Part shown: piece by piece, positions 6,949 through 35,970 of the stretch
Layout of the letters: the number at the start of each line of letters is the position of its first letter
Numbering within the stretch: position 1 is the first letter of the stretch
Sequence record: OQ446694.1
Direction: 5' to 3' (one strand)
DNA: 64,000 bases
Source: Escherichia phage Killian
Made by a program: the position numbers and the translations under genes
The notes under the pieces: model-generated
Seen by the model: only the letters and a program-made list of their open reading frames with translations
The model's database searches: none
Told to the model about the DNA's origin: nothing

Positions 6949-9645
6949 TCAGCCAAACAGGAAGTCTAACGAAGCTTTTTCTTCATAGTCCATACCCGCC
7001 GATTCACACATGCCCGCAAGCGGTTTAACAAACGATTTTTGGAACAAAGTTGAGTAGTCAATCCAAGACAGTACATCAGAACGAATTTCTTTTGGAAGTT
7101 CTGTGCCTGATGGCCAAGCAATGCACTTGTCACCAAATGGATTTCCTTCACGTAATGGAAGAACCATTACCTTATTTCCATCCAAAATTGGAGCTACACC
7201 TAAACCGCTAACAGCTCGACGATAAGTTAGCACACCACGAATATGGAACGGACATTTAAATCCTGGCCAACCTTTATCATCATATTTCGCTATATCGTTC
7301 GCAGTTTTTACTTCAGCAATAACTTTATAGTCAAGTTGACGATATTCTTTCTCAAAGTTCTTGTAGTATTCTTGGACAGACTCTTCGCCTTCCTGAAGAA
7401 TACGACGAATACTTTCTTCGAGAGCTTCTTGTACTGCTTTTGGTGTTGAACTCTGCTGAGTTTCCATACCCATGATTTTTAGATGTGGTTCAGCAAATCG
7501 CTTATCTTCCATATCATAAACGTTCAGAGCATAACGTTTTTTCGCTTTCCAAAATCCACCAACACCCTTTGAACCAAGCGGAGGACAAGAAATAGCTTCA
7601 CGGTCCATATGCATCAGATGCTCGCGGTTATTCATATAATCACATAACTCACGATATGCAACATCAATCATAGGTTCCATCTTTTTCTTACCAAACTGAT
7701 TCATGAATTCAACTAAATCATTTTGTTCTTTAAAGCGATCAAGACCTACTTTTTCAATTACTTTATCTACACAAACATATACCGAATCAGTATCACCTGC
7801 TGCGATGAAATCTTCACCATTAGTTCCACACACTTTATTTAGATATTCATTAATTTTGCGAGCAATCCACTGAATACCGACTTGACCGAAAATTGTGATA
7901 GCAGTAGCATTTCGCAAATCATAGTAGCGGAAATGAATATTACCAAGAGCACCATAAAGACTGTTAATAAGAATTTTACGGTTCAGCTGATTTGTGTTAG
8001 CAAGTGTAGCAGCTTTTTCACATTCTTCAATCAGACTGTTAAGAACAGATTCGGTGTAATTCGATAATTCGTTTAAGAAATCATCATTGAACTTAACATA
8101 TCGTTCAACTTCCGGTTTAGTTGAACAAGACCCTGCACCTTTCATAATAATCTTTTTAATAGCTTCGGCATTCATTTCTTCAGCGAACATTTTCTTTTTC
8201 CAATCTTTACGCTGGAAAAATACTTTAGCGATTTCCTTTGGAATGATACCTTCTTGATGCTTATCATACATCCATCCATTCGGAGAACAAGAATATTCAT
8301 CACTTGGCTTAGGAGCTGTTCCTGCGATATATTCATGAATTGGATGAACTTTAAATTGCCCGCGAATAGTCTCAGGACTAATGTTAACCTGACGAATAAT
8401 GCTAGGATACAGAGACGTCAAGTCAAAACTCATAATGTATCGACGAGCAATCGGTTTAGGTTCAAACACAAATGCACCTGGAAAACTCTGTTTAACGTGC
8501 GAACCTTGTTGAGGAATAACCTTATGTTCACCTTTCAGTGAGTTAAAAATAATAGCATCCCAAGTTTTAATAGGACTCATTACACCAGAAAAAGGCATTT
8601 TAGCGTAATAAGACATACTTAAAACTAGATCGATAAACCCACGAATTTTATCAATTGCTTGAACTGATTCTACGTCAATGATGTTATAACTAATGTATCG
8701 TTGATGATTAGTCTCACGAAGTTTATTAATAGGACCATCGTACGGCAATTTACCTTTTTTGGTTTCATGTTGAGCAACTGATTCCAAAGAGAACGATGGC
8801 AAATTAGTAAATGCGAATTTCTTGTACAAATCTAAATAATCAAGAATAGATACGCCATCAATAGAATAAATTTCTTTACTACCGTACATATTTTGAATTA
8901 GTTTAGATTTTACTCGACCGATTGGAGAGAAACGTTTCATACTACGTTCACCGAGAACCATTTTAACACGATTCATGATATACGGAACGTCAAATCCCTC
9001 AATATTCCAACCAGTAAAAATAGCAGGTCGTTTCTGTTCCCAGAGATTAATATATTCCATGAGCATATCACGCTCATTATCAAATGGCATATAAATTACT
9101 CGGTCAAGAATTTCTTGAGGAACTTCATCACCACCTTCACAGTCAAGCTTAGCAGCTAACTTTGCGTCCCATTTTGATACTGAACCGTACATTGAATTCA
9201 ACAAATCAAAGACGTAAAAACGATCGTCAATTGAATCATAATGAGTGATAGCATCAATTTCATATTCTGCTTTCATTGGGTCAGGAAATTTATCACCAGT
9301 AACCTCAATGTCACAGTTAGCTACACGAACAAATTTTCGGTCATAAACAATTTCTGAACCATATGTATCACTGATATAAGCGAGTTTAAAATCGTTCATA
9401 CCGAGAGCTTCGAGACCAATGTCTTCCATTCGTTTCATCCAGTCTCGTGCATCTTTCATTGATGGAAATTTTTGAGGAGCACAATTTTTACCATAAATGT
9501 CTTTGTATTTTGACTCTTCCTTACAATGCCTAAACATAGTCGGAAGATATTCTACTTCACGGGTACGTTCCTTTCCATTTTCATCAATATAACGTTCAAC
9601 AATATTATTTCCGACTGTTTCGATAGAGATATAAAATTCTTTCAT
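6949..9645 (-). CDS. 43: DNA polymerase gp43 (family B)
   Basis: 898 aa; exo and pol motifs including YGDTDS; T4 length. Confidence 0.97.
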   Translation of the reverse strand: MKEFYISIETVGNNIVERYIDENGKERTREVEYLPTMFRHCKEESKYKDIYGKNCAPQKFPSMKDARDWMKRMEDIGLEALGMNDFKLAYISDTYGSEIVYDRKFVRVANCDIEVTGDKFPDPMKAEYEIDAITHYDSIDDRFYVFDLLNSMYGSVSKWDAKLAAKLDCEGGDEVPQEILDRVIYMPFDNERDMLMEYINLWEQKRPAIFTGWNIEGFDVPYIMNRVKMVLGERSMKRFSPIGRVKSKLIQNMYGSKEIYSIDGVSILDYLDLYKKFAFTNLPSFSLESVAQHETKKGKLPYDGPINKLRETNHQRYISYNIIDVESVQAIDKIRGFIDLVLSMSYYAKMPFSGVMSPIKTWDAIIFNSLKGEHKVIPQQGSHVKQSFPGAFVFEPKPIARRYIMSFDLTSLYPSIIRQVNISPETIRGQFKVHPIHEYIAGTAPKPSDEYSCSPNGWMYDKHQEGIIPKEIAKVFFQRKDWKKKMFAEEMNAEAIKKIIMKGAGSCSTKPEVERYVKFNDDFLNELSNYTESVLNSLIEECEKAATLANTNQLNRKILINSLYGALGNIHFRYYDLRNATAITIFGQVGIQWIARKINEYLNKVCGTNGEDFIAAGDTDSVYVCVDKVIEKVGLDRFKEQNDLVEFMNQFGKKKMEPMIDVAYRELCDYMNNREHLMHMDREAISCPPLGSKGVGGFWKAKKRYALNVYDMEDKRFAEPHLKIMGMETQQSSTPKAVQEALEESIRRILQEGEESVQEYYKNFEKEYRQLDYKVIAEVKTANDIAKYDDKGWPGFKCPFHIRGVLTYRRAVSGLGVAPILDGNKVMVLPLREGNPFGDKCIAWPSGTELPKEIRSDVLSWIDYSTLFQKSFVKPLAGMCESAGMDYEEKASLDFLFG

Positions 9646-9703
9646 AGATATTCCTTAGTTTATAGCCCGAGTTATTAGGCTCTTGATATATTATACTCCA
9701 AAT

Positions 9704-9721
9704 AAGGGGCCGAAGCCCCTT
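9704..9721 (-). terminator. C(UUCG)G tetraloop hairpin between 43 and regA
   Basis: GGGGC-CGAA-GCCCC on plus, giving UUCG loop in minus-strand RNA. Confidence 0.5.
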
Positions 9722-9723
9722 GC

Positions 9724-10092
9724 TTAATTACCAATCGTATATTTTGGAACGAGTTTCCATTCATGTTTTTGTTTAAAAGAAATAACTCGGAAGTTATTGG
9801 TTAAATCTTTCATAAAAGTTCTTTGACCAGGAACGATTTCAATCAGTCCCCAATCTTCTAACAGCCACGCAATCGAATCACGACGAACTTCATCTTCTTC
9901 TGTCATTTCAACCTGACGGCCATCCATACGAAGCATTTCTTTAAAATGAACGATATAGTATAGTCCTTTTTTCTGAAGAATATGACAGGACTGATACAGA
10001 ACTTTATCTTTATTATTAGCAATTCCCATACGAGTCAAGGTTTCTTTTACTTTCAGAAAATCTTCAGGTTTTTTAAGAGTAATTTCAATCAT
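9724..10092 (-). CDS. regA: RegA translational repressor
   Basis: 122 aa; T4 position between 43 and 62. Confidence 0.9.
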   Translation of the reverse strand: MIEITLKKPEDFLKVKETLTRMGIANNKDKVLYQSCHILQKKGLYYIVHFKEMLRMDGRQVEMTEEDEVRRDSIAWLLEDWGLIEIVPGQRTFMKDLTNNFRVISFKQKHEWKLVPKYTIGN

Positions 10093-22690: not shown

Positions 22691-24504
22691 TGGTGTTTAA
22701 CCCTATGCATGATTTCTTTATTTTTGCCGAGATTAAATCCGCGTTCATTCGGATTTCCCAAATAACCACAAGTTCTTCTTATTGTGTTCATCTTTTTAGG
22801 ATCAGTTTCTCCACAAATAGAACAAACAAACCCGTTTTCAGTAGGAGTCATTTCATGGGTACTTCCGCATGTAAAACATTTATCTACTGGCATATTAACA
22901 CCAAAATAATCTAAATGTTGTGCAGCATAATCCCATACAGCCTCAAGACCTTTTAGGTTATTTTTCATATCAGGAAGTTCAACATAAGAAATGTGACCAC
23001 CTGTCGCAATGAAATGATATGGGGCTTCGCGAGAAATCTTTTCAAATGGAGTAATATTTTCTTCTACCGAAACGTGGAAACTGTTAGTGTACCAGCCTTT
23101 ATCGGTAACATCTTTTACACTTCCATATTTTTCGGTATCAAGTTTACAGAAGCGATAGCACAGGTTTTCAGCAGGTGTAGAATACAAACTAAAAGCAAAA
23201 CCGGTTCTTTCAGTCCACTGCTTAAGATGAGCATTCATTTTAGTTAAAATTTCTTGTCCAATATCACGACCGACAAGAATATTCAATTCGTGAATACCAA
23301 TGTATCCTAGGGACACTGAACTTCTACCGTTTTTAAATAACTCAATTATATCGTCATCAGGTTTAAGACGAACCCCGAATGCACCTTCTTGATAAAGAAT
23401 AGGAGCAACAGTCGCTTTAACTCCTTTTAAGGAACTAATTCTACACATCAAAGCTTCAAAACACAAATCCATTCGTTCATTGAACAATTCAGCAAATTTC
23501 TGTTCATTGAACTGTGTTCCAATATAAGAATCTAGTGCAATGCGAGGAAGATTCAGTGTTACAACACCAAGATTATTACGTCCATCAAGAATTTCATTAC
23601 CAGTCGAATCTTTCCATACACCCAAGAAACTACGACAACCCATTGGAGAAACAGGAATAGATGAACCGGTGATAGCTTTATTGTTCTTAGCTGAAATAAT
23701 ATCAGGATACATTCTTTTGCTTGCACACTCTAGAGCAAGCTGCTTAATATCATAGTTTGGATCGTCTTTATAAAGATTAACACCTTCTTCAACGAACATA
23801 ACAAGCTTAGGGAAAATAGGAGTTATCCCATCACGACCAAGACCTTTAATACGATTTTTCAGAATTGCTTTCTGAATCATTCGTTCAGTCCAGTCAGTTC
23901 CCGTACCAAATGTAATTGTTACAAAAGGCGTTTGTCCGTTTGAACTAAAGAGAGTATTTACTTCATATTCATAAGCTTGGAATGCATCGTATACGTCTTT
24001 TTCTGTTTTAGACTGGGCGTAATTCAACGCATCAGCGATTTGCCATTTTTCTGCGTCCTCAATATGTTTTGCGTAGGTGCGTTTAACATAAGGAGAAAGG
24101 ACTTTATCTACATTCGCAAAAGTCGTTCCGCCATATTGATGGGAAGCAACCTGCGCAGTAATTTGTGCCATAATTGCAGTAGCAACGCCGATTGATTTAG
24201 GAGTTTCAATCTGCGCATTACCGAGCTTAAATCCATTCTCAAGCATTCCTTTTAAATCGACTAAACAGCAATTAGTAAAAGGCAATGATATACTGTAATC
24301 TAAATCATGAAAATGAATTAATCCAACATTATGTGCATTTACAATATGACTTGGAAGAATACGACAAGCGATATGTTTAGAAACAATACCGGCCATTAAA
24401 TCTCTTTTTGTTGGAAAGACACGAGAATCTTTGTTGGCGTTTTCGGTATTTAATTCTTTATCTTTATTTGAAATAAAATTTAAAACATCTTTCTCTAAAG
24501 ACAT
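22687..24504 (-). CDS. nrdD: anaerobic ribonucleoside-triphosphate reductase NrdD
   Basis: 605 aa uninterrupted; C-terminal glycyl radical motif RRTCGYLG and Zn-ribbon cysteines. Confidence 0.95.
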   Translation of the reverse strand: MSLEKDVLNFISNKDKELNTENANKDSRVFPTKRDLMAGIVSKHIACRILPSHIVNAHNVGLIHFHDLDYSISLPFTNCCLVDLKGMLENGFKLGNAQIETPKSIGVATAIMAQITAQVASHQYGGTTFANVDKVLSPYVKRTYAKHIEDAEKWQIADALNYAQSKTEKDVYDAFQAYEYEVNTLFSSNGQTPFVTITFGTGTDWTERMIQKAILKNRIKGLGRDGITPIFPKLVMFVEEGVNLYKDDPNYDIKQLALECASKRMYPDIISAKNNKAITGSSIPVSPMGCRSFLGVWKDSTGNEILDGRNNLGVVTLNLPRIALDSYIGTQFNEQKFAELFNERMDLCFEALMCRISSLKGVKATVAPILYQEGAFGVRLKPDDDIIELFKNGRSSVSLGYIGIHELNILVGRDIGQEILTKMNAHLKQWTERTGFAFSLYSTPAENLCYRFCKLDTEKYGSVKDVTDKGWYTNSFHVSVEENITPFEKISREAPYHFIATGGHISYVELPDMKNNLKGLEAVWDYAAQHLDYFGVNMPVDKCFTCGSTHEMTPTENGFVCSICGETDPKKMNTIRRTCGYLGNPNERGFNLGKNKEIMHRVKHQ

Positions 24505-25316
24505 AATTCTAATTTATCCTTTTGAAATTCTTCGTCTAAATATGGGTTCCAACCCATTTTAAACCTTTTGATGAAATTATCAATTCTAAATTTCGGTAAG
24601 TTTAAATCCGCAAAAATAGATGATTTACTTTTAAAATCTGGACCTAAATAATCATATAAAATTTCTGCGTATTTTAACCATAATATACAAGTACCAGATT
24701 TAATTGCTCTCGGAGTTTTCCAAGGTTTTACACCATACATCGGATTTCCACTTCCTTTATGCCTGATAGAAGATGAAATTCCAATTTTAATTTTAGCTTC
24801 CTTTGTATGCGAAAATCCACGATGCGGATTTTCTTTCCAGTATTTTTTAGAAGCTTCTGATATTTTCTTTCTGGCTAAATTAGTATGATGCTTTCCATAA
24901 AATCCATGATTTTTGCCTTTATTACGATTTCTTTTAATCATGGTTATTGATTGCTTTTCTCTAGTTTCTTTAGAAGGAGAAATACCATATGTCGTAAATT
25001 TGCCATCAGCATATGCTAAATTAAAATACTCTTTATTCCATACATCTTTTTCTATATTCTTTTGAAATTCAGCTTCAATGCTAGTTATTTGTTCATCTCC
25101 GACTAATTGAAAATATAATATTTCAACTTTCGGCGTTTCTTTCAACAGGGCTTTTTGAAATTCGGAAGATGACGAAGACGAATAATAAAATTTACCATTT
25201 TTATCAATAATATTCGTTCCGTCAAAAGTGCAATTGGTTTTACTTCCAATATAATAATATGGTGGGGTTTTAGCATTAATTCTACTAATAAATGATAGTT
25301 TATATACTACATTCAT
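24495..25316 (-). CDS. freestanding homing endonuclease-like protein (GIY-YIG-like N-terminus, NUMOD-type repeats)
   Basis: 273 aa; YYIGS motif; repeated NHGFYG/NPMYG motifs; between nrdD and 49. Confidence 0.55.
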   Translation of the reverse strand: MNVVYKLSFISRINAKTPPYYYIGSKTNCTFDGTNIIDKNGKFYYSSSSSSEFQKALLKETPKVEILYFQLVGDEQITSIEAEFQKNIEKDVWNKEYFNLAYADGKFTTYGISPSKETREKQSITMIKRNRNKGKNHGFYGKHHTNLARKKISEASKKYWKENPHRGFSHTKEAKIKIGISSSIRHKGSGNPMYGVKPWKTPRAIKSGTCILWLKYAEILYDYLGPDFKSKSSIFADLNLPKFRIDNFIKRFKMGWNPYLDEEFQKDKLELCL

Positions 25317-26768: not shown

Positions 26769-27158
26769 TTAATTTCGCAATTTATTAAGTTCTTCATAAT
26801 CAATCCAGGATTCTAGTCCTGATGGCAAATCAGATTCAATTTCCCAAAGAAGTTCTTCAATTTTCTGAAGACGATCTAATTCTTCAGCAGGAATAGTAAC
26901 CATTGACGGAGTTCTTGATACGCTAATATCGTAAATCATATTTACCCCCAGTTTGACCATACAATCGCCATATTTCCATTTAGAAATAGACTTTTCACCA
27001 TTAGAATAATAAACTTCAAGTTTAGCACGATTATTTTTAATTTGAATAACCTTTGCTGTCATCAAAGTTCCATACCCATAATAAACTGCAACCTCATCAC
27101 CTACATATACCGCGCTTCCGCGGTAGTCATGGATATAATCAGTTCCTTCGAGCATCAT
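26769..27158 (-). CDS. hypothetical protein
   Basis: 129 aa ORF. Confidence 0.45.
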   Translation of the reverse strand: MMLEGTDYIHDYRGSAVYVGDEVAVYYGYGTLMTAKVIQIKNNRAKLEVYYSNGEKSISKWKYGDCMVKLGVNMIYDISVSRTPSMVTIPAEELDRLQKIEELLWEIESDLPSGLESWIDYEELNKLRN

Positions 27159-27419: not shown

Positions 27420-27710
27420 TTATTCCTTAATTCCTAGTACTTGTTTAAAAGTCTCGTCGTAATCAAGACTTTGGCCCGTTTGTTCTTTATGTTTGTATAT
27501 AATATCACTTACTTCTGATAGCATATTTTTATATGAACGGGTTAAAGCAGATTTAAGCACGCTGTATCTATCAGGAAATTTACCATGTTCATTATAATAA
27601 GCTATTGCTAATTCACGGACTGCCTTTTCAGCAGTCTCCATATATTCTTTACGCTTGGTCATTTTCTTCTCGGTTAAATCGGTGTTTGCAATGACGACAT
27701 TTATATTCAA
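27420..27710 (-). CDS. hypothetical protein (start uncertain, possibly internal Met near 27638)
   Basis: 96 aa ORF overlapping the next ORF by 62 nt. Confidence 0.4.
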
Positions 27711-27966
27711 GCTCTGGTTTACGCCAGTTAATCAATTGGACCTGTTCAGTACCACATTTTGGGCAGTTCGGAACATTCTTAGAAGCCCTTTCGCGACGTT
27801 CAACCATAGCCATAATGGCATCCCAAGCTGGAGGTTTAAAATCTAAATCGTCACAACCATGAATCTTTCCACGCATTTCCAGATCGTCTTCTTCACCAGC
27901 CATAATAATTTTAATTAGACTGGAATTACTTGAAGCTGCAATATCTTCTAATAAGCGCTTTTTCAT
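27649..27966 (-). CDS. Zn-ribbon protein
   Basis: 105 aa; CPKC...CRHC four-cysteine ribbon. Confidence 0.5.
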
Positions 27967-28892
27967 TTCAATACCTCAATAGCATTACGTAAACCATTTG
28001 CTTTTGCATTAAGAGCTTTTAACAATTTGGTGTGCTCTTCAATCTGTTTTTCAACTTCAATTAAACGTGTATTAAGATATTCGCGTTCTTCACTCAGGTT
28101 ATCAATCTTTTCTACTTTAGGTTCTTTTACAACTGGCTTATATGTATTAGGGTTCTTCAGTTTAATTAGAATGCGTGAACTGTACAGCATTGAACCATTA
28201 TCTTCGGTTTCGTCATACATTTCAACTACGTCCATCATCTCCACCATCGTGCAGAGTTTATAAGACAACGAACGAATAGTTTTGTTGTGCTTATTAATTT
28301 CTCTAGCTGTCATGGTGCCGAGATTACGTGAGTAATAATAAGGAACCTGGATATTAATTAATACTGATGAACCACCTGGCTTGTGTGTTACTTCATCAGC
28401 AATAACCCAGTCCTTAACATGAACTGTATTTGTACGGTCATCACCTGCAGTAAATAGTTTACGAGCATGCTTAAAAAGCATATTCACTTGGTCATTGAAT
28501 TGACAAGCAAATTTATCAGCAAATTTAGTTTCAGGAATGGTAGATAACCAATCAGCCAAATGGGTCTTTTTAACATCGTTAACAATAGTAAATTCAACCA
28601 AATCAGTTATAGATGTCTCAGATTTAATAAAGCTCGGCTTCATAAAGTTTTTAATGTTATCACGAGCTATCACAGAAGATAGTAATCGGGAACGTTTGAA
28701 CCACTCTAGCAAAGAACCAAGAGAATGTGAATACGCATTTTGTGTATCTTTACAAATATGGTTTTCCCATCCAATATAGTCTAAAAAATCACGAAGAATA
28801 TTATTGATTACTGCTCTGTGTCCTATCTGATAATTACGATGTTTAGTAATAAGACTGTCAAAATAATCAATATAATGTTTACGAGTTTTCAT
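27963..28892 (-). CDS. uncharacterised protein with C-terminal coiled coil (array member A)
   Basis: 309 aa; heptad-rich C-terminus. Confidence 0.5.
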   Translation of the reverse strand: MKTRKHYIDYFDSLITKHRNYQIGHRAVINNILRDFLDYIGWENHICKDTQNAYSHSLGSLLEWFKRSRLLSSVIARDNIKNFMKPSFIKSETSITDLVEFTIVNDVKKTHLADWLSTIPETKFADKFACQFNDQVNMLFKHARKLFTAGDDRTNTVHVKDWVIADEVTHKPGGSSVLINIQVPYYYSRNLGTMTAREINKHNKTIRSLSYKLCTMVEMMDVVEMYDETEDNGSMLYSSRILIKLKNPNTYKPVVKEPKVEKIDNLSEEREYLNTRLIEVEKQIEEHTKLLKALNAKANGLRNAIEVLK

Positions 28893-28944
28893 GTTCTTCT
28901 CACTTAGTTAATGATTTATACTCCGAGCCATCCTTGGCTTTAAA

Positions 28945-29946
28945 TTACTTAATTAACTGTAAAGCTTGTTCAAGACGATCCAGGCGATTAACAGATTCTT
29001 CCCAAATCCTTTTAGCCTGCTCATATTCTTTCTGCGCTTTATTAGAAATTTCTAGAGCTTCTTTATAAGCTTTTTCTAATGCAATAACTTCTGGACGAAT
29101 TTCTACCGATTCAGGTGAATCATCAAGATTATCCATTAGTTCCTCAAGGGTAGTTTCTTCTTTAGGAGTATTCACAATTTCCTCACATTTTTGTTGATAA
29201 ATTTCTTTATCAGTCGGTGAGTACGCGCACTTTACTTCACGAAGACTAACTACAATTTTGTATCCTTCCCAACCGCGCATATTTTTAAAAGGATAAGTAT
29301 AAATATTTTCTACTGTTTCCATACAAAGTAATGCGGTTTCTAATTGACGAGTTATAGTGCTAGCAATTGAGAAAAATTTATTAATATTCTTTTGGTTAGC
29401 GTCTGGTGTAAAAAATTCATAATTCACAAAAATAGCTGCTTTATTTTTATCAAGCTCGTATTCTTTTATGATAATCATATCAGAAGCCCAAGGATGAATT
29501 TGACGATAATCGCCATAGCATAATTTAGAAGCTGATTTTAGAATTTGCTTTTTGAAAAGTCTGAAATTACTAATCCAACGACGAGTAAAAATATTCTCAG
29601 GGTCTTCTTTATTATTAAGATGATAAGAATTAACATCACCGAACCAATTATATCCTACTACATCTTTGGTTCGTTTAATTTCTTTCCCAAAATTACCAAG
29701 AATATCTCGATTAACCAAATATGAAAGAAGACGAGACTCTTTAAAGGTTTTCTTGATAACATCTTTATCTACACGGCTAGAAATTTTACGAATTTCATGA
29801 ATAAATTTAGTAGAAGAAACAATACCTGCATCAACACTATTGAGCCATTGATTGATAATAGAAATAACGCTATTTTGACCAAACATCGGTATAGCTTTAT
29901 CATCAATAACACTATTGAATGATTTGATATATTCGTTACGAGTCAT
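28945..29946 (-). CDS. uncharacterised protein with C-terminal coiled coil (array member B)
   Basis: track ORF 28945..29997 trimmed to MTRNEY start with GAGGAG Shine-Dalgarno. Confidence 0.5.
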   Translation of the reverse strand: MTRNEYIKSFNSVIDDKAIPMFGQNSVISIINQWLNSVDAGIVSSTKFIHEIRKISSRVDKDVIKKTFKESRLLSYLVNRDILGNFGKEIKRTKDVVGYNWFGDVNSYHLNNKEDPENIFTRRWISNFRLFKKQILKSASKLCYGDYRQIHPWASDMIIIKEYELDKNKAAIFVNYEFFTPDANQKNINKFFSIASTITRQLETALLCMETVENIYTYPFKNMRGWEGYKIVVSLREVKCAYSPTDKEIYQQKCEEIVNTPKEETTLEELMDNLDDSPESVEIRPEVIALEKAYKEALEISNKAQKEYEQAKRIWEESVNRLDRLEQALQLIK

Positions 29947-29971
29947 ATTAATCTCCTCAGTAGAAAGTAAG

Positions 29972-30006
29972 AACATTATACCACATCCTTGTGGCAAAGT
30001 AAACTA
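29972..30006 (-). promoter_or_regulatory. T4-type early promoter (-35 GTTTAC, -10 TATAAT)
   Basis: consensus hexamers plus GAGGAG Shine-Dalgarno before the MTRNEY start. Confidence 0.55.
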
Positions 30007-31032
30007 GTTCAGTGCATTTAGTGCATTGTTCAGTTTAGAACGTTGCTTTGTCAGATTTTGAACCCTTGACTGAGCTTGTTCTAACACCTTTTCAGCTTCT
30101 AGCACTTCATTGGTCGCTTTAACGAGTTCATCATCTACTGCCTTAAGAGACTTCTCAATCGCGTCAGCGTGCCATTTTTCTACAGGTTTAAAATTTGAAT
30201 TTTCAGTAGGAAGAAAACTCACTTTATTAAGTTTACATGCATCTATATTGCTTGAGCTATACATCCAAAATTTAGGATCGTTTGATGAGTAATTGGATAA
30301 ATTTAAATTTAAGTTATCTTGCACTTCCTGCTTTTTCTCTTGCGTGACTTCGTCCTTTCTCAAAAAATCGTATTTAAATGAAACGATCATATCAAGTTCA
30401 TACGTTGTTGTATGTTCCCAATTTCGCTCAAAACGAGGTAAAATCTTAGACTGAACAGCGGCAACAACATCCATATACTTAAATGCTTCTGTCAACTGTG
30501 ATTTAAGGCATTCGCAAATTGAAAGAGAATTTTTTGTATTAGGTTTAAAGCTAATTCGTGCAGTTCTATTATTTTCTTTTAATGGTCTTACTTCCATCTG
30601 AAGAGTATAACCATCAAATTTCAGGTTCTTTAAGTTAATGTCAGAACCTTTTAATCGACTAGCCGTCGACAAAATTTGCTTTAATTGTCTACGGAACAGA
30701 GCAATAAATCTCCATTCAATACGATAATGATTTGGATTGAAAAATCCAGATGATAAATCGACCTTACTTTGACCAACGCCTTGAACAAATAGAGGATTTT
30801 TATAATCAATAGTTTTACAGAAATCGGTGAGCTGCTCACGAGCCGTCATTTGTGTAATATACCCTGCTTTACTAAAATTACGCACCCATTCACTGCTATT
30901 CGTATACTTAAAGTGATGAATAACACGATTAACTTTATCAGGGTCTAAATTATTTTCACACAAAAATGTCATAACATCACGAGTATAACTGGCATTACGA
31001 ACCATATCTTCAATTTGAGAACGAGTTTTCAT
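30004..31032 (-). CDS. uncharacterised protein with C-terminal coiled coil (array member C)
   Basis: 342 aa. Confidence 0.5.
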   Translation of the reverse strand: MKTRSQIEDMVRNASYTRDVMTFLCENNLDPDKVNRVIHHFKYTNSSEWVRNFSKAGYITQMTAREQLTDFCKTIDYKNPLFVQGVGQSKVDLSSGFFNPNHYRIEWRFIALFRRQLKQILSTASRLKGSDINLKNLKFDGYTLQMEVRPLKENNRTARISFKPNTKNSLSICECLKSQLTEAFKYMDVVAAVQSKILPRFERNWEHTTTYELDMIVSFKYDFLRKDEVTQEKKQEVQDNLNLNLSNYSSNDPKFWMYSSSNIDACKLNKVSFLPTENSNFKPVEKWHADAIEKSLKAVDDELVKATNEVLEAEKVLEQAQSRVQNLTKQRSKLNNALNALN

Positions 31033-31040
31033 GGTGTTCC

Positions 31041-31967
31041 TTAAGATTTAAGTAAATCAACAATTTTAATTAACTTTTCACGCTCAGATTTAGCTTTACT
31101 ACTCAATCCAGATAGTCTGAAAATTTCATCATCATATTGTTGAATAGAAATATTCAGCTCTTCAATCTGTTTATTAAAATAATCAATTTGTTCAGAATGT
31201 TTTTCGTTACTACGAACTGGTACAGGTTTCGTAGGCAATTTAGTTGAACTGGATTCATCCGGGCGATAAATTAAAATACAACTTGAACCAATAGGGCATT
31301 TTGCACCAGATGAATATTCTAATGTTCCAGCTTCTTTTAAAACTTCAAAAGCTAAACAGAGATGATGCCCCATATTAACATAATCTGTAGAGTGAGCTCT
31401 GATGTAATAATCGTCTCCACGAATACTAAATTTAAAGCATTTAAGGTCTTCTGTATTATTGGTCTTAAAAATCATTTGTTTATCTAGACCTTTAGCTAAT
31501 CGAGCGCCCAATGCTAATAATCGGCGTTGATTTTCCCACAAATCCGCAATCATTTGATCGAATGATAATTTTGGCATCAGTCGACCATAAAGGTCATATC
31601 CTTTATTATAATTACGAAGGATTTCACTCGCGTTAATACGAGACAATGCTCCAATTTTATTAAGGGCTTTCATAATGCGATTAGATAAACTCATTCCAGA
31701 CCCATTTGTTCGCTGCAAATGTTTTTCTAATCCAAATCCAATATCAACTTTAAACTTATCTAAAATTTCTGCATGAACATCTCTGTCAATAACATTCAAA
31801 TCCAAAGTTGGGTTAAATCTATGAAAAAATTTATCTGGCTCTCCACGGCGAAATACAGTCCATTCATTCATCATTTTTTTATTAGCTAAAGATTTAATTA
31901 CTGCATTGACATTATTAATTACTACTGACATATTTTCCTCACTCAATTTCAATTTTACTAAATACAC
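31041..31967 (-). CDS. uncharacterised protein with C-terminal coiled coil (array member D)
   Basis: 308 aa. Confidence 0.5.
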   Translation of the reverse strand: MYLVKLKLSEENMSVVINNVNAVIKSLANKKMMNEWTVFRRGEPDKFFHRFNPTLDLNVIDRDVHAEILDKFKVDIGFGLEKHLQRTNGSGMSLSNRIMKALNKIGALSRINASEILRNYNKGYDLYGRLMPKLSFDQMIADLWENQRRLLALGARLAKGLDKQMIFKTNNTEDLKCFKFSIRGDDYYIRAHSTDYVNMGHHLCLAFEVLKEAGTLEYSSGAKCPIGSSCILIYRPDESSSTKLPTKPVPVRSNEKHSEQIDYFNKQIEELNISIQQYDDEIFRLSGLSSKAKSEREKLIKIVDLLKS

Positions 31968-32346: not shown

Positions 32347-32401
32347 AATAATCTCAATTAAAAGGGCTTAGAACCATTATACCATCCTTGGTATAAAGCG
32401 G

Positions 32402-32929
32402 TTATGCGAGTACCGTCTTTAACCGTTCTTCAAACTTCCGAAGAGTATTTTGGCGTTCAGCTCTTTGCTTTTTGTAAGTTTCAATACGCTCTGAAATGAG
32501 AGTGTATCGTTCATTTACTGATTCTTTCATAAAATCAGGAATTTCACGAGAAGCTTTAATCTCATCAAATTTATCAATAACAGCTTGCTCTTCAGCAATT
32601 AAGTTATCATACATTAAAATATCTTTCTTGATGAACTCAATATCTTCTTGAGTTACACGAGATAATTTAGATGCTTTATCCTTTTTGTACTGTTCGTTAG
32701 TATCACGAGACCAGTGTAATGTACGATTTTTATTCGTATTTTTGTAAATTTCTACAATACCAATCTCATCAATAATAACGATCCAATTCCAGCGGGATTT
32801 GTAAATTTGTCCTCCATCAACTGTGATTTCACCTCCGATTGAGATGTCGTTAAAGAACTTGCTTTGTGCTTCAGATTTAAATTTACCATCATTGTAATTT
32901 ACCAGGTTGAAAATATCTTTAGCGTTCAT
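32402..32929 (-). CDS. hypothetical protein
   Basis: 175 aa; starts directly downstream of an early promoter cassette. Confidence 0.5.
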   Translation of the reverse strand: MNAKDIFNLVNYNDGKFKSEAQSKFFNDISIGGEITVDGGQIYKSRWNWIVIIDEIGIVEIYKNTNKNRTLHWSRDTNEQYKKDKASKLSRVTQEDIEFIKKDILMYDNLIAEEQAVIDKFDEIKASREIPDFMKESVNERYTLISERIETYKKQRAERQNTLRKFEERLKTVLA

Positions 32930-34431: not shown

Positions 34432-34695
34432 TTATTTTAATGTTCGCCAAATTTTTACTGCTTCGCGACGAGATACTTCTACAGCTCCAAGTTCTACGGC
34501 TTTTTGGCGGCGGCGCGCGTGTAAGTCATAATGTTTAATGCGTTTATCTTGAAACCAAGAGCGTTTCATTCCTATTGCTTCTGCCATTTCATGAAGCTCT
34601 TCAATATCTCCATCAGTGAACATATGACAATTTTTAGTTGGATGACCGCGAAGTTTCCACCCATGATTCATTAAAACATCTACGTAAACTGTCAT
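34432..34695 (-). CDS. hypothetical small protein
   Basis: 87 aa ORF. Confidence 0.45.
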   Translation of the reverse strand: MTVYVDVLMNHGWKLRGHPTKNCHMFTDGDIEELHEMAEAIGMKRSWFQDKRIKHYDLHARRRQKAVELGAVEVSRREAVKIWRTLK

Positions 34696-34841
34696 TGATT
34701 CTGCTCCAAATATGTTTCTATAATTTTCTGAGCGAGATAAACTGCGTTATCTTCAGTTGCATCTTCTAAGAAATTTTCAAAACAAGCTGAAATCTCTTCT
34801 GTGTCAATCAACTTTTTTACTTCAATTAACGTAGTTTTCAT
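34692..34841 (-). CDS. hypothetical small acidic protein
   Basis: track ORF 34692..34886 trimmed: the MVLYNYQL prefix is the translated promoter -10 region; MKTTLIEV start has a Shine-Dalgarno. Confidence 0.4.
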   Translation of the reverse strand: MKTTLIEVKKLIDTEEISACFENFLEDATEDNAVYLAQKIIETYLEQNQ

Positions 34842-34869
34842 TTTATTCCCCCAAATCCACATCAGTTGA

Positions 34870-34908
34870 TAGTTGTATAGTACCATAAAGCTTTATGCTT
34901 GTAAACAA
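34870..34908 (-). promoter_or_regulatory. T4-type early promoter cassette
   Basis: GTTTACA / TACTATAC elements. Confidence 0.55.
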
Positions 34909-34956: not shown

Positions 34957-35970
34957 TCATTTATAATAACTTCGGTGGTTTTCAAGATATACCTCTTCAA
35001 CGAACTTGTCCCAGAACTTCATGTCTACCTTATCAGGCATACCGTTCTTAGCTGCCTGGATGGCTAGGACTTCAACCAAATCAACAGTATCTTCAAGAAG
35101 TTCTTGAACTTCTTTAAATGGTAATTCACCGGCTTTAATCAGCTTAATGATAGAGGCTTCGCGCAATGGGAACGCCAAATCACCTGTTTGGTAGATTTCC
35201 ATCAATTGATACCCTGCGCGATAAGCATGACTCAGAGCTTTCCAGTCAATACCTTCATTAGCTTCAGCCTTACGAGCACGTTCACCATATTCCGCATCGA
35301 GCTTATTCAGAGATTGCTTGAGCTCGATTAAAGACAAGGTGGTTTGGTACTTACGTCCAAGAACAGTATAGAACGTTTGAGGACCTGTTTTCTCGTGGTT
35401 ATGGAATACCCATTCACAGAACTCGTTTTCAGGAAGCCGATGTTTAATATCTACAATTTTAGTACGACGTTGTCCTTGTGTTCCATCTTCTCGGTAATCA
35501 ACCCACTGGTCAGGAATTTGATTAACTACTTTCAATACATCACGTAATGCGGCCAAACGAGAACCCTTAACACCATATTTAGAAGCTTGCTTGCGGACAT
35601 ATCCTAAATAGGATTTCATGTTAGTCGTATAAAACCGTGAACGATTGTCTTGAATAAACTTCCATACATCAGGCAAATCAGATTTAACTACTAGTTCAGG
35701 TGGAGTGTGGAGCATATCCAATGCTACAGTTTCACCATCTGCTGCTAATTTAAAGAAATATTTAAGACTGTATAGTTCATGGTCAATATCATCTTTAGTG
35801 TTTTTAGATGATGTGTTGTTAGTGTTTTTACTCATATGCTCTTTAACATTTCCGATAAGAATATCGCGAGCAGGAGGAACAAAGATTTCTTTAAAATCTA
35901 CATCAGATTCTGGAGTAGAAGTTCCATAAAGATGACTACCAAAATAGCTTTTCATTACTGTTTTCATCAT
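34957..35970 (-). CDS. polymerase-beta-superfamily nucleotidyltransferase-like protein
   Basis: 337 aa; N-terminal GSHLYGTSTPESDVDF fits the G[GS]x(9-13)DhDh nucleotidyltransferase signature. Confidence 0.5.
   Translation of the reverse strand: MMKTVMKSYFGSHLYGTSTPESDVDFKEIFVPPARDILIGNVKEHMSKNTNNTSSKNTKDDIDHELYSLKYFFKLAADGETVALDMLHTPPELVVKSDLPDVWKFIQDNRSRFYTTNMKSYLGYVRKQASKYGVKGSRLAALRDVLKVVNQIPDQWVDYREDGTQGQRRTKIVDIKHRLPENEFCEWVFHNHEKTGPQTFYTVLGRKYQTTLSLIELKQSLNKLDAEYGERARKAEANEGIDWKALSHAYRAGYQLMEIYQTGDLAFPLREASIIKLIKAGELPFKEVQELLEDTVDLVEVLAIQAAKNGMPDKVDMKFWDKFVEEVYLENHRSYYK

Follow-up and report, generated by a model that had tools for sequence, protein, structure and literature searches.

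The DNA considered here is a window of 64,000 nucleotides (nt), the whole stretch that was analysed, from Escherichia phage Killian (sequence record OQ446694.1), and the subject is a tandem array of four genes lying within it at 27963-31967. Judged by its similarities, the window is a Tequatrovirus (T4-like) genome, and the array genes are the T4-type early genes nrdC.6, nrdC.5, nrdC.4 and nrdC.3, in order of transcription on the minus strand. The 4.8-kb region around the array has counterparts in 708 phage records (best match 97.4% DNA identity), where it is annotated as nrdC.2 to nrdC.8. The flanking open reading frames (ORFs) encode endonuclease VII, PinA, the NrdC thioredoxin, the NrdC.10 ATPase and the NrdC.11 nucleotidyltransferase. 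A first-pass annotation, made from the letters of the sequence, had described four tandem same-strand genes here without recognising them as nrdC.3-nrdC.6. Four consecutive minus-strand ORFs do occupy the interval:

31041-31931, minus strand: nrdC.6, 296 amino acids (aa); phrog_2257 (E 9e-152); homologues with the newer Pfam family PF26899
30004-31032, minus strand: nrdC.5, 342 aa; Pfam DUF7235 (PF23882); orthologue of the T4 anti-Dsr1 gene
28945-29946, minus strand: nrdC.4, 333 aa; phrog_1435 (E 5e-166); homologues with the newer Pfam family PF26897
27963-28892, minus strand: nrdC.3, 309 aa; phrog_1435 (E 3e-116); a paralogue of nrdC.4 and a highly polymorphic allele

The proteins had been described as being of similar size, at 308-350 aa. 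The values 350 and 308 came from mechanically chosen TTG and GTG starts. Two start codons (nrdC.4 and nrdC.6) had been misplaced in this way, and the corrected lengths are 309, 333, 342 and 296 aa for nrdC.3 to nrdC.6. For nrdC.4, the start is placed at the ATG at 29946 because a GAGGAG precedes it (8 nt upstream), the site lies downstream of the point where transcription is expected to begin, and 333 aa is also the length of homologues; the alternative starts (a 350-aa TTG form and a 343-aa ATG form) fall inside or upstream of the promoter described below. For nrdC.6, the ATG at 31931 opens a conserved beginning, MS..IN, and the GTG start was rejected because it would create an overlap with nrdC.7 and because M1 and S2 are invariant across genera.

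Killian nrdC.5 matches PF23882 over its full length (residues 1-342) with 406 bits against a cut-off of 30, and shares 94% aa identity over 97% of its length with NrdC.5 of T4 strain 147, where the gene order is the same. PF26897 is carried by homologues 87-93% identical to Killian nrdC.4; membership of nrdC.3 and nrdC.4 in this family was judged through phrog_1435 and these homologues, the Pfam copy used being one without the PF26897 model.

All four proteins end in a coiled coil, as the first-pass annotation had proposed. Each tail is a single unbroken a/d register of 48-60 residues (7-8 heptads), with a hydrophobic occupancy at a/d positions of 0.75-0.82 compared with 0.16-0.21 elsewhere (P<=0.0005 in shuffles of the tail):

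31044-31202, minus strand: nrdC.6 coiled coil, aa 244-296; a/d 0.77 vs 0.18, P 0.0005
30007-30186, minus strand: nrdC.5 coiled coil, aa 283-342; a/d 0.76 vs 0.16, P<0.0005
28948-29094, minus strand: nrdC.4 coiled coil, aa 285-333; a/d 0.75 vs 0.21, P 0.0005
27966-28109, minus strand: nrdC.3 coiled coil, aa 262-309; a/d 0.82 vs 0.16, P<0.0005

A cruder heptad window scan over the whole proteins was not significant (P~0.13-0.17), and the tail-specific test was used instead. AlphaFold models place a long single helix at 285-332 in nrdC.4 and at 283-341 in nrdC.5, where the predicted local distance difference test (pLDDT) is 70-90. The register and the ending L-x-x-A-[LI]-x-x-L-[KN] are common to all four tails.

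The kinship that the first-pass annotation had supposed from this layout is borne out once the coiled coils are removed: nrdC.3-nrdC.6 are diverged paralogues belonging to a single superfamily. Family alignments were built from database homologues and enriched with diverged members from other genera. They were then compared with hhalign after cutting the last 62 residues, given the bias introduced by coiled coils, and the scores were calibrated against column-shuffled profiles. Under these conditions, the nrdC.5 family matches the nrdC.3/4 family with E 1.4e-7 (probability 94%, 148 colinear columns, z 16.7), and the nrdC.6 family matches the merged nrdC.3/4/5 profile with E 4.7e-4 (151 colinear columns, z 7.7). 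In a MAFFT alignment of 43 members, four features line up in all families. These are a first motif (for example, FKESRLLSYLVNRDILGNFGK in nrdC.4, SKAGYITQMTAREQLTDFCK in nrdC.5 and NKIGALSRINASEILRNYNK in nrdC.6), a second of the form ...Q..K.IL..AS+L..GD, a third of the form QL..A...M..V, and a linker junction, [KR]P[VE]...EK, at the entry to the coiled coil.

An alternative is that the proteins converged on the same layout, a globular part followed by a low-complexity coiled coil, and that the profile scores are compositional artefacts. It could draw on pairwise BLASTP, which links nrdC.3 and nrdC.4 alone (26% identity over 285 aa, E 4e-8); on PHROGs, where these two share phrog_1435 and the other two fall in separate families, and current Pfam, which likewise holds three families (PF26897, PF23882 and PF26899); and on the marginal scores of the nrdC.6 family against single families (z 1.8-2.9, E 0.02-0.1). 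It is nevertheless very improbable, as the signal survives coiled-coil removal, the matches are colinear and share three motifs, the fold search described below recovers NrdC.6 over its full length, and the genes are syntenic in distant phages. For nrdC.3, nrdC.4 and nrdC.5, non-homology is largely refuted. In sequence, nrdC.6 is both the most conserved member of the superfamily and the most divergent.

Another gene was considered as a fifth, shorter member. The last 66 residues of the nrdC.8 product (32402-32929, 175 aa) show a heptad pattern (P 0.0005), but the gene was rejected because profile similarity to the superfamily is absent (E 0.04-0.25). A 175-aa protein of Klebsiella phage KPV15 weakly matches the nrdC.4 model (E 3.7e-3).

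For nrdC.4 and nrdC.6, the fold comparison agrees with common ancestry. An AlphaFold2 model of nrdC.4, built from the combined alignment, is confident (pLDDT 82.9, predicted template modelling score 0.68). It consists of a helical bundle (3-84), an alpha/beta core (88-235) with strands at 88-110, 158-174 and 212-235 and helices at 119-142 and 185-208, a further helix (246-258), a low-confidence linker (259-284) and then one long helix (285-332). A model from the nrdC.5 family alone (10 sequences) was poor, with a pLDDT of 52, and was left out of fold searches. Searched with Foldseek against BFVD, the nrdC.4 model matches NrdC.6 of phage JS10 over its full length (E 1.4e-5, probability 1.0, template modelling scores 0.40/0.45). 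The other full-length matches with a probability of 1.0 are a 308-aa Yersinia phage protein and uncharacterised proteins of about 300 aa from T4-like phages of Acinetobacter (Acj61, Acj9 and fHyAci03), Pectobacterium, Enterobacter, Erwinia, Serratia and Klebsiella. A protein of Aeromonas phage Aeh1 matches more weakly (E 8.8e-3, probability 0.85). Both Acj61 matches are adjacent (p120 and p121), have heptad tails and lie between nrdC and nrdC.10, which is the syntenic position. The fold matches across T4-like phages, together with this syntenic pair, indicate that the superfamily spans Straboviridae.

Beyond these phage proteins, the searches returned little. Foldseek of the nrdC.4 model returned no PDB match below E 0.02, a sequence-profile search of the PDB none below E 0.09, and Pfam recognised neither a tail-terminator nor an enzymatic family in any of the 43 members. 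Pfam, PDB sequence profile and fold search alike revealed no catalytic or metabolite-binding domain.

Array content varies among T4-like phages, and the strict one-to-one conservation that would speak against a diversifying family is absent. In a tblastn search of 50,697 phage records, nrdC.6 was found in 741, nrdC.3 in 653, nrdC.4 in 553 and nrdC.5 in 530, and at least 80% of the 4.8-kb region is held by 464 of the 708 matching records. A search for related loci with the nrdC.6 family recovered close genera only. Gene content was then read from a hidden Markov model (HMM) search of fetched loci, in which copy number ranges from one to four members per phage:

Tequatrovirus: 6-5-4-3
Dhakavirus and Gaprivervirus: 6-5-4, with a shorter nrdC.5 and no nrdC.3
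Mosigvirus LF82-8: a 6-like gene, a 5-like gene and an nrdC.3-type gene
Acinetobacter phage Acj61: two copies
Pinarejo: a 47-aa nrdC.6 remnant only
ACG-C40 (locus L005, 5805-6216): nrdC.6 and an out-of-frame nrdC.5(1-68)/nrdC.3(237-309) stump
Salmonella phage Manna (locus L003, 5215-6252): an in-frame nrdC.6(1-270)::nrdC.4(251-333) hybrid, plus nrdC.3
Metagenomic P0056: an nrdC.5::nrdC.3 fusion

The Manna chimera is joined at a 6-nt GAAATT microhomology. Members are also found broken. For instance, nrdC.4 is frameshifted in T4 strain 147 (88+272 aa; locus L007, 5914-6946) and in locus L012 (193+158 aa; 8950-9982), and in the T2 record LC348380 it is recovered as three tblastn pieces and is probably frameshifted. 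Such splits may reflect either the decay of a dispensable gene into a pseudogene or errors of sequencing. On an 803-bp metagenome contig, a 173-aa ORF (P0231; locus L023, 120-641) directly upstream of an nrdC.4 start combines an unrelated N-terminus of about 110 aa with the nrdC.5 coiled coil (the last ~63 residues). The contig is too short to tell whether this ORF arose as a deletion fusion or is a chimera of the assembly. Two further candidates from the representative search were left out, P0237 as an artefact of a repeat and P0236 as a probable chimeric assembly.

The array genes also evolve faster than their neighbours. Pairwise ratios of nonsynonymous to synonymous divergence (dN/dS, or omega) between Killian and four Tequatroviruses are 0.16-0.41 for nrdC.3-nrdC.5 and 0.04-0.19 for nrdC.6, compared with 0.01-0.04 for gp49, nrdC and nrdC.8-nrdC.10. 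The array values are 4-10 times those of flanking genes, and gene-wide omega is never above 1. The first-pass annotation had suggested that the array reflects diversification under host pressure, a reading supported by this faster protein evolution and by the variable gene content, with the proviso that omega is below 1 across each gene. Conservation is greatest in nrdC.6, which is 95-99% identical in 465 records.

The nrdC.3 gene is highly polymorphic. Its Killian allele is 64% identical to that of T4 (synonymous divergence, dS, 0.65; locus L007, 7001-7927) and 75% identical to that of Mosigvirus LF82-8 (locus L004, 4998-5948), which suggests replacement of the allele by exchange between genera. 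Across phage records, nrdC.3 identities are bimodal, with 355 at 90% or above and 291 at 60-80%. Beyond the array, nrdC.11 (34957-35970; Pfam RlaP) is 88% identical, with dS 0.66-0.83, to its counterparts in all four Tequatroviruses, and the adjacent nrdC.10 is 99-100% identical. This pattern marks nrdC.11 as a sharply bounded divergent allele.

Three spacers in and beside the array hold promoter and stem-loop elements:

29947-30003, minus strand: nrdC.5/nrdC.4 spacer, PeSL-type cassette; early promoter and hairpin, then a GAGGAG ribosome-binding site
28893-28944, minus strand: nrdC.4/nrdC.3 spacer, degenerate PeSL-like element; TTTAAA-N18-TATAAA (weak hexamers), hairpin GCCA-AGGA-TGGC
32347-32401, minus strand: nrdC.8/nrdC.7 spacer, middle-promoter-type stem-loop cassette; GCTT (Mot-box type), hairpin TACCA-AGGA-TGGTA, TATAAT

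The first of these carries the early promoter that had been ascribed to one member of the array. The promoter is real as a sequence and conserved, but it is not embedded in the end of the upstream gene, because it lies in the 57-nt spacer and overlaps nrdC.5 by the last base of the stop codon only. It reads GTTTAC-N17-TGGTATAAT at 30003-29975 (minus strand), and its hexamers flank a 7-bp hairpin, CCACA-AGGA-TGTGG. The consensus described in phages PST and T4 for PeSL (promoter-early stem-loop) cassettes is TTTACW-N17-TAYWAT (PMC4122927), and the Killian element, in a hyperplastic region, has TTTACT-N17-TATAAT with the 7-bp stem between the hexamers. A generic promoter scan of the region was not above chance (29 found vs 27 expected). 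The promoter itself, however, is 100% conserved in eight Tequatrovirus loci, and GTTTAC...CCAAGGATGG...TATAAT precedes an nrdC.4-type or nrdC.3-type gene in Dhakavirus, Gaprivervirus and Mosigvirus. The annotation of phage SA21RB places a T4 early promoter at the same spacer site. The nrdC.8/nrdC.7 cassette heads the nrdC.7-nrdC.6-nrdC.5 block, and SA21RB annotates a terminator and a middle promoter there. The hairpin core CAAGGATG (loop AGGA) occurs in all three spacers, which hold all three of its gene-strand copies in the 64 kb. The three elements fit the PeSL/PmSL cassette class.

A lead on function comes from nrdC.5. A T4 deletion mutant fails to plate on ECOR17 or on MG1655 carrying ECOR17 dsr1 (Srikant et al. 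2022, PMC9391042), and plasmid-borne T4 nrdC.5 restores that mutant's plating on Dsr1-carrying cells (PMC9391042). According to a 2026 preprint (PMC12803255), the major capsid protein is what the TPR sensor of Dsr1 detects, and tail terminators, tube proteins and further structural proteins are the targets of other Avs sensors. Downstream neighbours of the array are also single-gene inhibitors of defence systems, namely gp49.2 for OLD (PMC13096335) and nrdC.1 for Septu (bioRxiv 10.1101/2025.11.20.689424). A literature search on nrdC.3, nrdC.4, nrdC.6, DUF7235 or the anti-Dsr1 mechanism found nothing beyond PMC9391042.

The reading favoured here, with a probability of about 0.6, is that the array is an early, non-essential set of paralogues that is gained, lost and recombined among phages, and for which counter-defence is the most likely role. 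Since nrdC.5 is already known to counter a bacterial immune protein, the array would most likely be a variable anti-defence toolkit. Each paralogue, including nrdC.3, nrdC.4 and nrdC.6, may neutralise a different host immune protein. In such a scheme, the globular head (N-terminal helical bundle and alpha/beta core) would serve as a target-specific binder that inhibits by direct contact. Joined to it by a flexible linker, the C-terminal coiled coil of 7-8 heptads would be an interchangeable oligomerisation module that gives avidity. The worked example would be nrdC.5, whose T4 orthologue overcomes the Dsr1 SIR2 NADase defence. Genes between the promoter-stem-loop cassettes would be gained, lost, frameshifted or made chimeric according to the hosts met by each lineage.

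Several points weigh against this reading. Functional data exist for one of the four members, and these concern the T4 orthologue and not that of Killian; the nrdC.5 study (PMC9391042) does not give a mechanism. Positive selection is not demonstrated, because gene-wide omega is below 1, and the conservation of nrdC.6 is as compatible with a housekeeping accessory role as with an arms race. The link of nrdC.6 to the other members is weak by sequence and leans on the merged profile and the fold match. In addition, the nrdC.4 model was built on the combined superfamily alignment, and nrdC.5 is without independent structural confirmation because its own family model was poor.

Other explanations can be offered for the same observations. 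One is that the four proteins hetero-oligomerise through their similar coiled coils into a single machine with one early function, which would show itself in Dsr1 evasion among other effects. The shared register and ending of the tails would suit this, as would the exchange of tails in natural chimeras and the order 6-5-4 being kept across Tevenvirinae genera. It is unlikely, given that viable phages hold one, two or three members in varied combinations, that nrdC.4 is frameshifted in T4 strain 147 and L012, and that nrdC.5 alone, supplied from a plasmid, rescued the T4 deletion mutant (the mutant's content of other members was not checked).

Similarly doubtful is an early host-takeover or metabolic role outside immunity, in which the anti-Dsr1 effect is indirect, either because the trigger is delayed or masked or because NAD+ is buffered. 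Other phages evade Dsr1 metabolically via NARP pathways. In addition, the trigger itself could be the point of interference, since the major capsid protein is reportedly what the Dsr1 sensor recognises (PMC12803255). Set against this are the searches that detected no catalytic or metabolite-binding domain, and a pattern of presence, absence and pseudogenes that, together with the adjacent OLD and Septu inhibitors, is typical of dedicated anti-defence loci.

A more specific proposal, also improbable, is that NrdC.3-NrdC.6 are early decoys. A tail-terminator-like alpha/beta fold, oligomerised by the coiled coil, would occupy the TPR-type pattern-recognition sensors (Dsr1 and Avs families) through which bacteria perceive conserved structural proteins of phages, doing so before the genuine late proteins appear, with a different sensor for each paralogue. 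If true, these proteins would form a family of structural-protein-mimic immune antagonists across Straboviridae. That the proteins are themselves tail or neck assembly factors, as the likeness of the alpha/beta core to tail terminator and completion proteins might suggest, is scarcely credible: their genes have an early promoter and belong to an early accessory region, viable phages can do without them, the PDB holds no significant Foldseek match (lambda gpU, E 0.3) and no sequence match, none of the 43 members matches a terminator Pfam family, and T4 has its own terminator, gp15.

All four genes have long been annotated as ORFs in T4, and it was already known that T4 nrdC.5 acts against Dsr1. 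What is new is the joining of three families into one superfamily across Straboviridae, together with the natural chimeras and the lead from the fold comparison. In databases, the four genes are divided among three families that are treated as unrelated and of unknown function. A single superfamily with a head-linker-coiled-coil architecture, syntenic from coliphages to Acinetobacter phages and with lineage-specific copy number, turns the nrdC.5 result into a hypothesis for three more genes per T4-like phage. The nrdC.6::nrdC.4 chimera suggests domain swaps by which recognition of a target could be told apart from oligomerisation. In phage therapy, knowing which array genes a phage carries may help to predict its host range.

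The surrounding region holds further features. Immediately downstream lies the Zn-ribbon protein with which the first-pass annotation had closed the array, now identified as nrdC.2; it has the CxxC...CxxC pattern, and its Pfam zinc-ribbon matches are below threshold:

27649-27966, minus strand: nrdC.2, 105-aa Zn-ribbon protein, CPKC...CRHC; start overlaps the nrdC.3 stop (ATGA)

This gene always follows the last array member with stop and start overlapping, whether that member is nrdC.3 (Killian), nrdC.4 (Bp7 and RZ) or nrdC.3-like (LF82-8). The sequence of nrdC.2 varies as well (81% identity to T4, omega about 0.2), and the gene may be functionally linked to the array. Between nrdC.10 and nrdC.11, 34432-34886 holds an 87-aa DUF4031 protein and a 64-aa ORF; the DUF4031 gene is read as an indel in the same hyperplastic region because it is unmatched in the T4 strain 147, Pinarejo and Manna loci and present in ACG-C40. 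A 273-aa NUMOD3-motif protein (homing-endonuclease-like) at 24495-25316 adjoins endonuclease VII. At 26769-27158, a 129-aa DUF7205 ORF is unmatched in the T4 strain 147 locus, and its first ~55% only matches three other phages (100% identity). Outside the Killian window, Acj61p076/Acj61p077 (locus L022, 9028-11322) form a tandem 372-aa pair beside gene 40, annotated as mutual copies, that is unrelated to the nrdC superfamily by HMM.

Among known systems, the closest is T4 NrdC.5 itself (DUF7235/PF23882; PMC9391042), of which Killian nrdC.5 is the orthologue by identity, position and full-length domain match; activity has been shown for the T4 protein only. That study treats nrdC.5 as an isolated uncharacterised early gene, and its paralogy with nrdC.3, nrdC.4 and nrdC.6 and its domain layout are not described there. 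DSAD1, a phage inhibitor of the DSR2 sirtuin defence, resembles the mode of action proposed here for NrdC.5, in that it neutralises a SIR2 NADase that senses a structural phage protein. It differs in coming from another phage group and in that direct binding has been shown by cryo-electron microscopy, and the likeness to NrdC.5 would be one of mode of action. Tail terminator and completion proteins (lambda gpU, T5 p142 and SPP1 gp17-like) show no sequence similarity and no significant Foldseek match, and the nrdC proteins differ from them by an additional helical bundle at the N-terminus and a coiled coil at the C-terminus, and by being non-essential and expressed early.

The spacer elements resemble PeSL/PmSL cassettes (Arbiol 2010, PMC2839356; Comeau 2014, PMC4122927) in their TTTACW-N17-TAYWAT and stem-loop, and in lying between accessory genes of the hyperplastic region. 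The difference is that the two array deletion junctions mapped (Manna and ACG-C40) sit inside coding sequence and not at cassettes; recombination between PeSL cassettes was not found to underlie either indel, so PeSL-mediated shuffling is not demonstrated for the array. The array belongs to a known kind, the accessory anti-defence genes of the T4 hyperplastic region. Like the inhibitors of T4-like anti-defence islands (dmd-tifA-adfA, directed against toxin-antitoxin systems; gp49.2 against OLD; nrdC.1 against Septu), of which gp49.2 and nrdC.1 are located 1-2 kb downstream, its members lie in a hyperplastic region that is early and non-essential and is densely filled with single-gene inhibitors. 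The inhibitors of those islands are small and unrelated, whereas the Killian array consists of four paralogues of about 300 aa that share one architecture.

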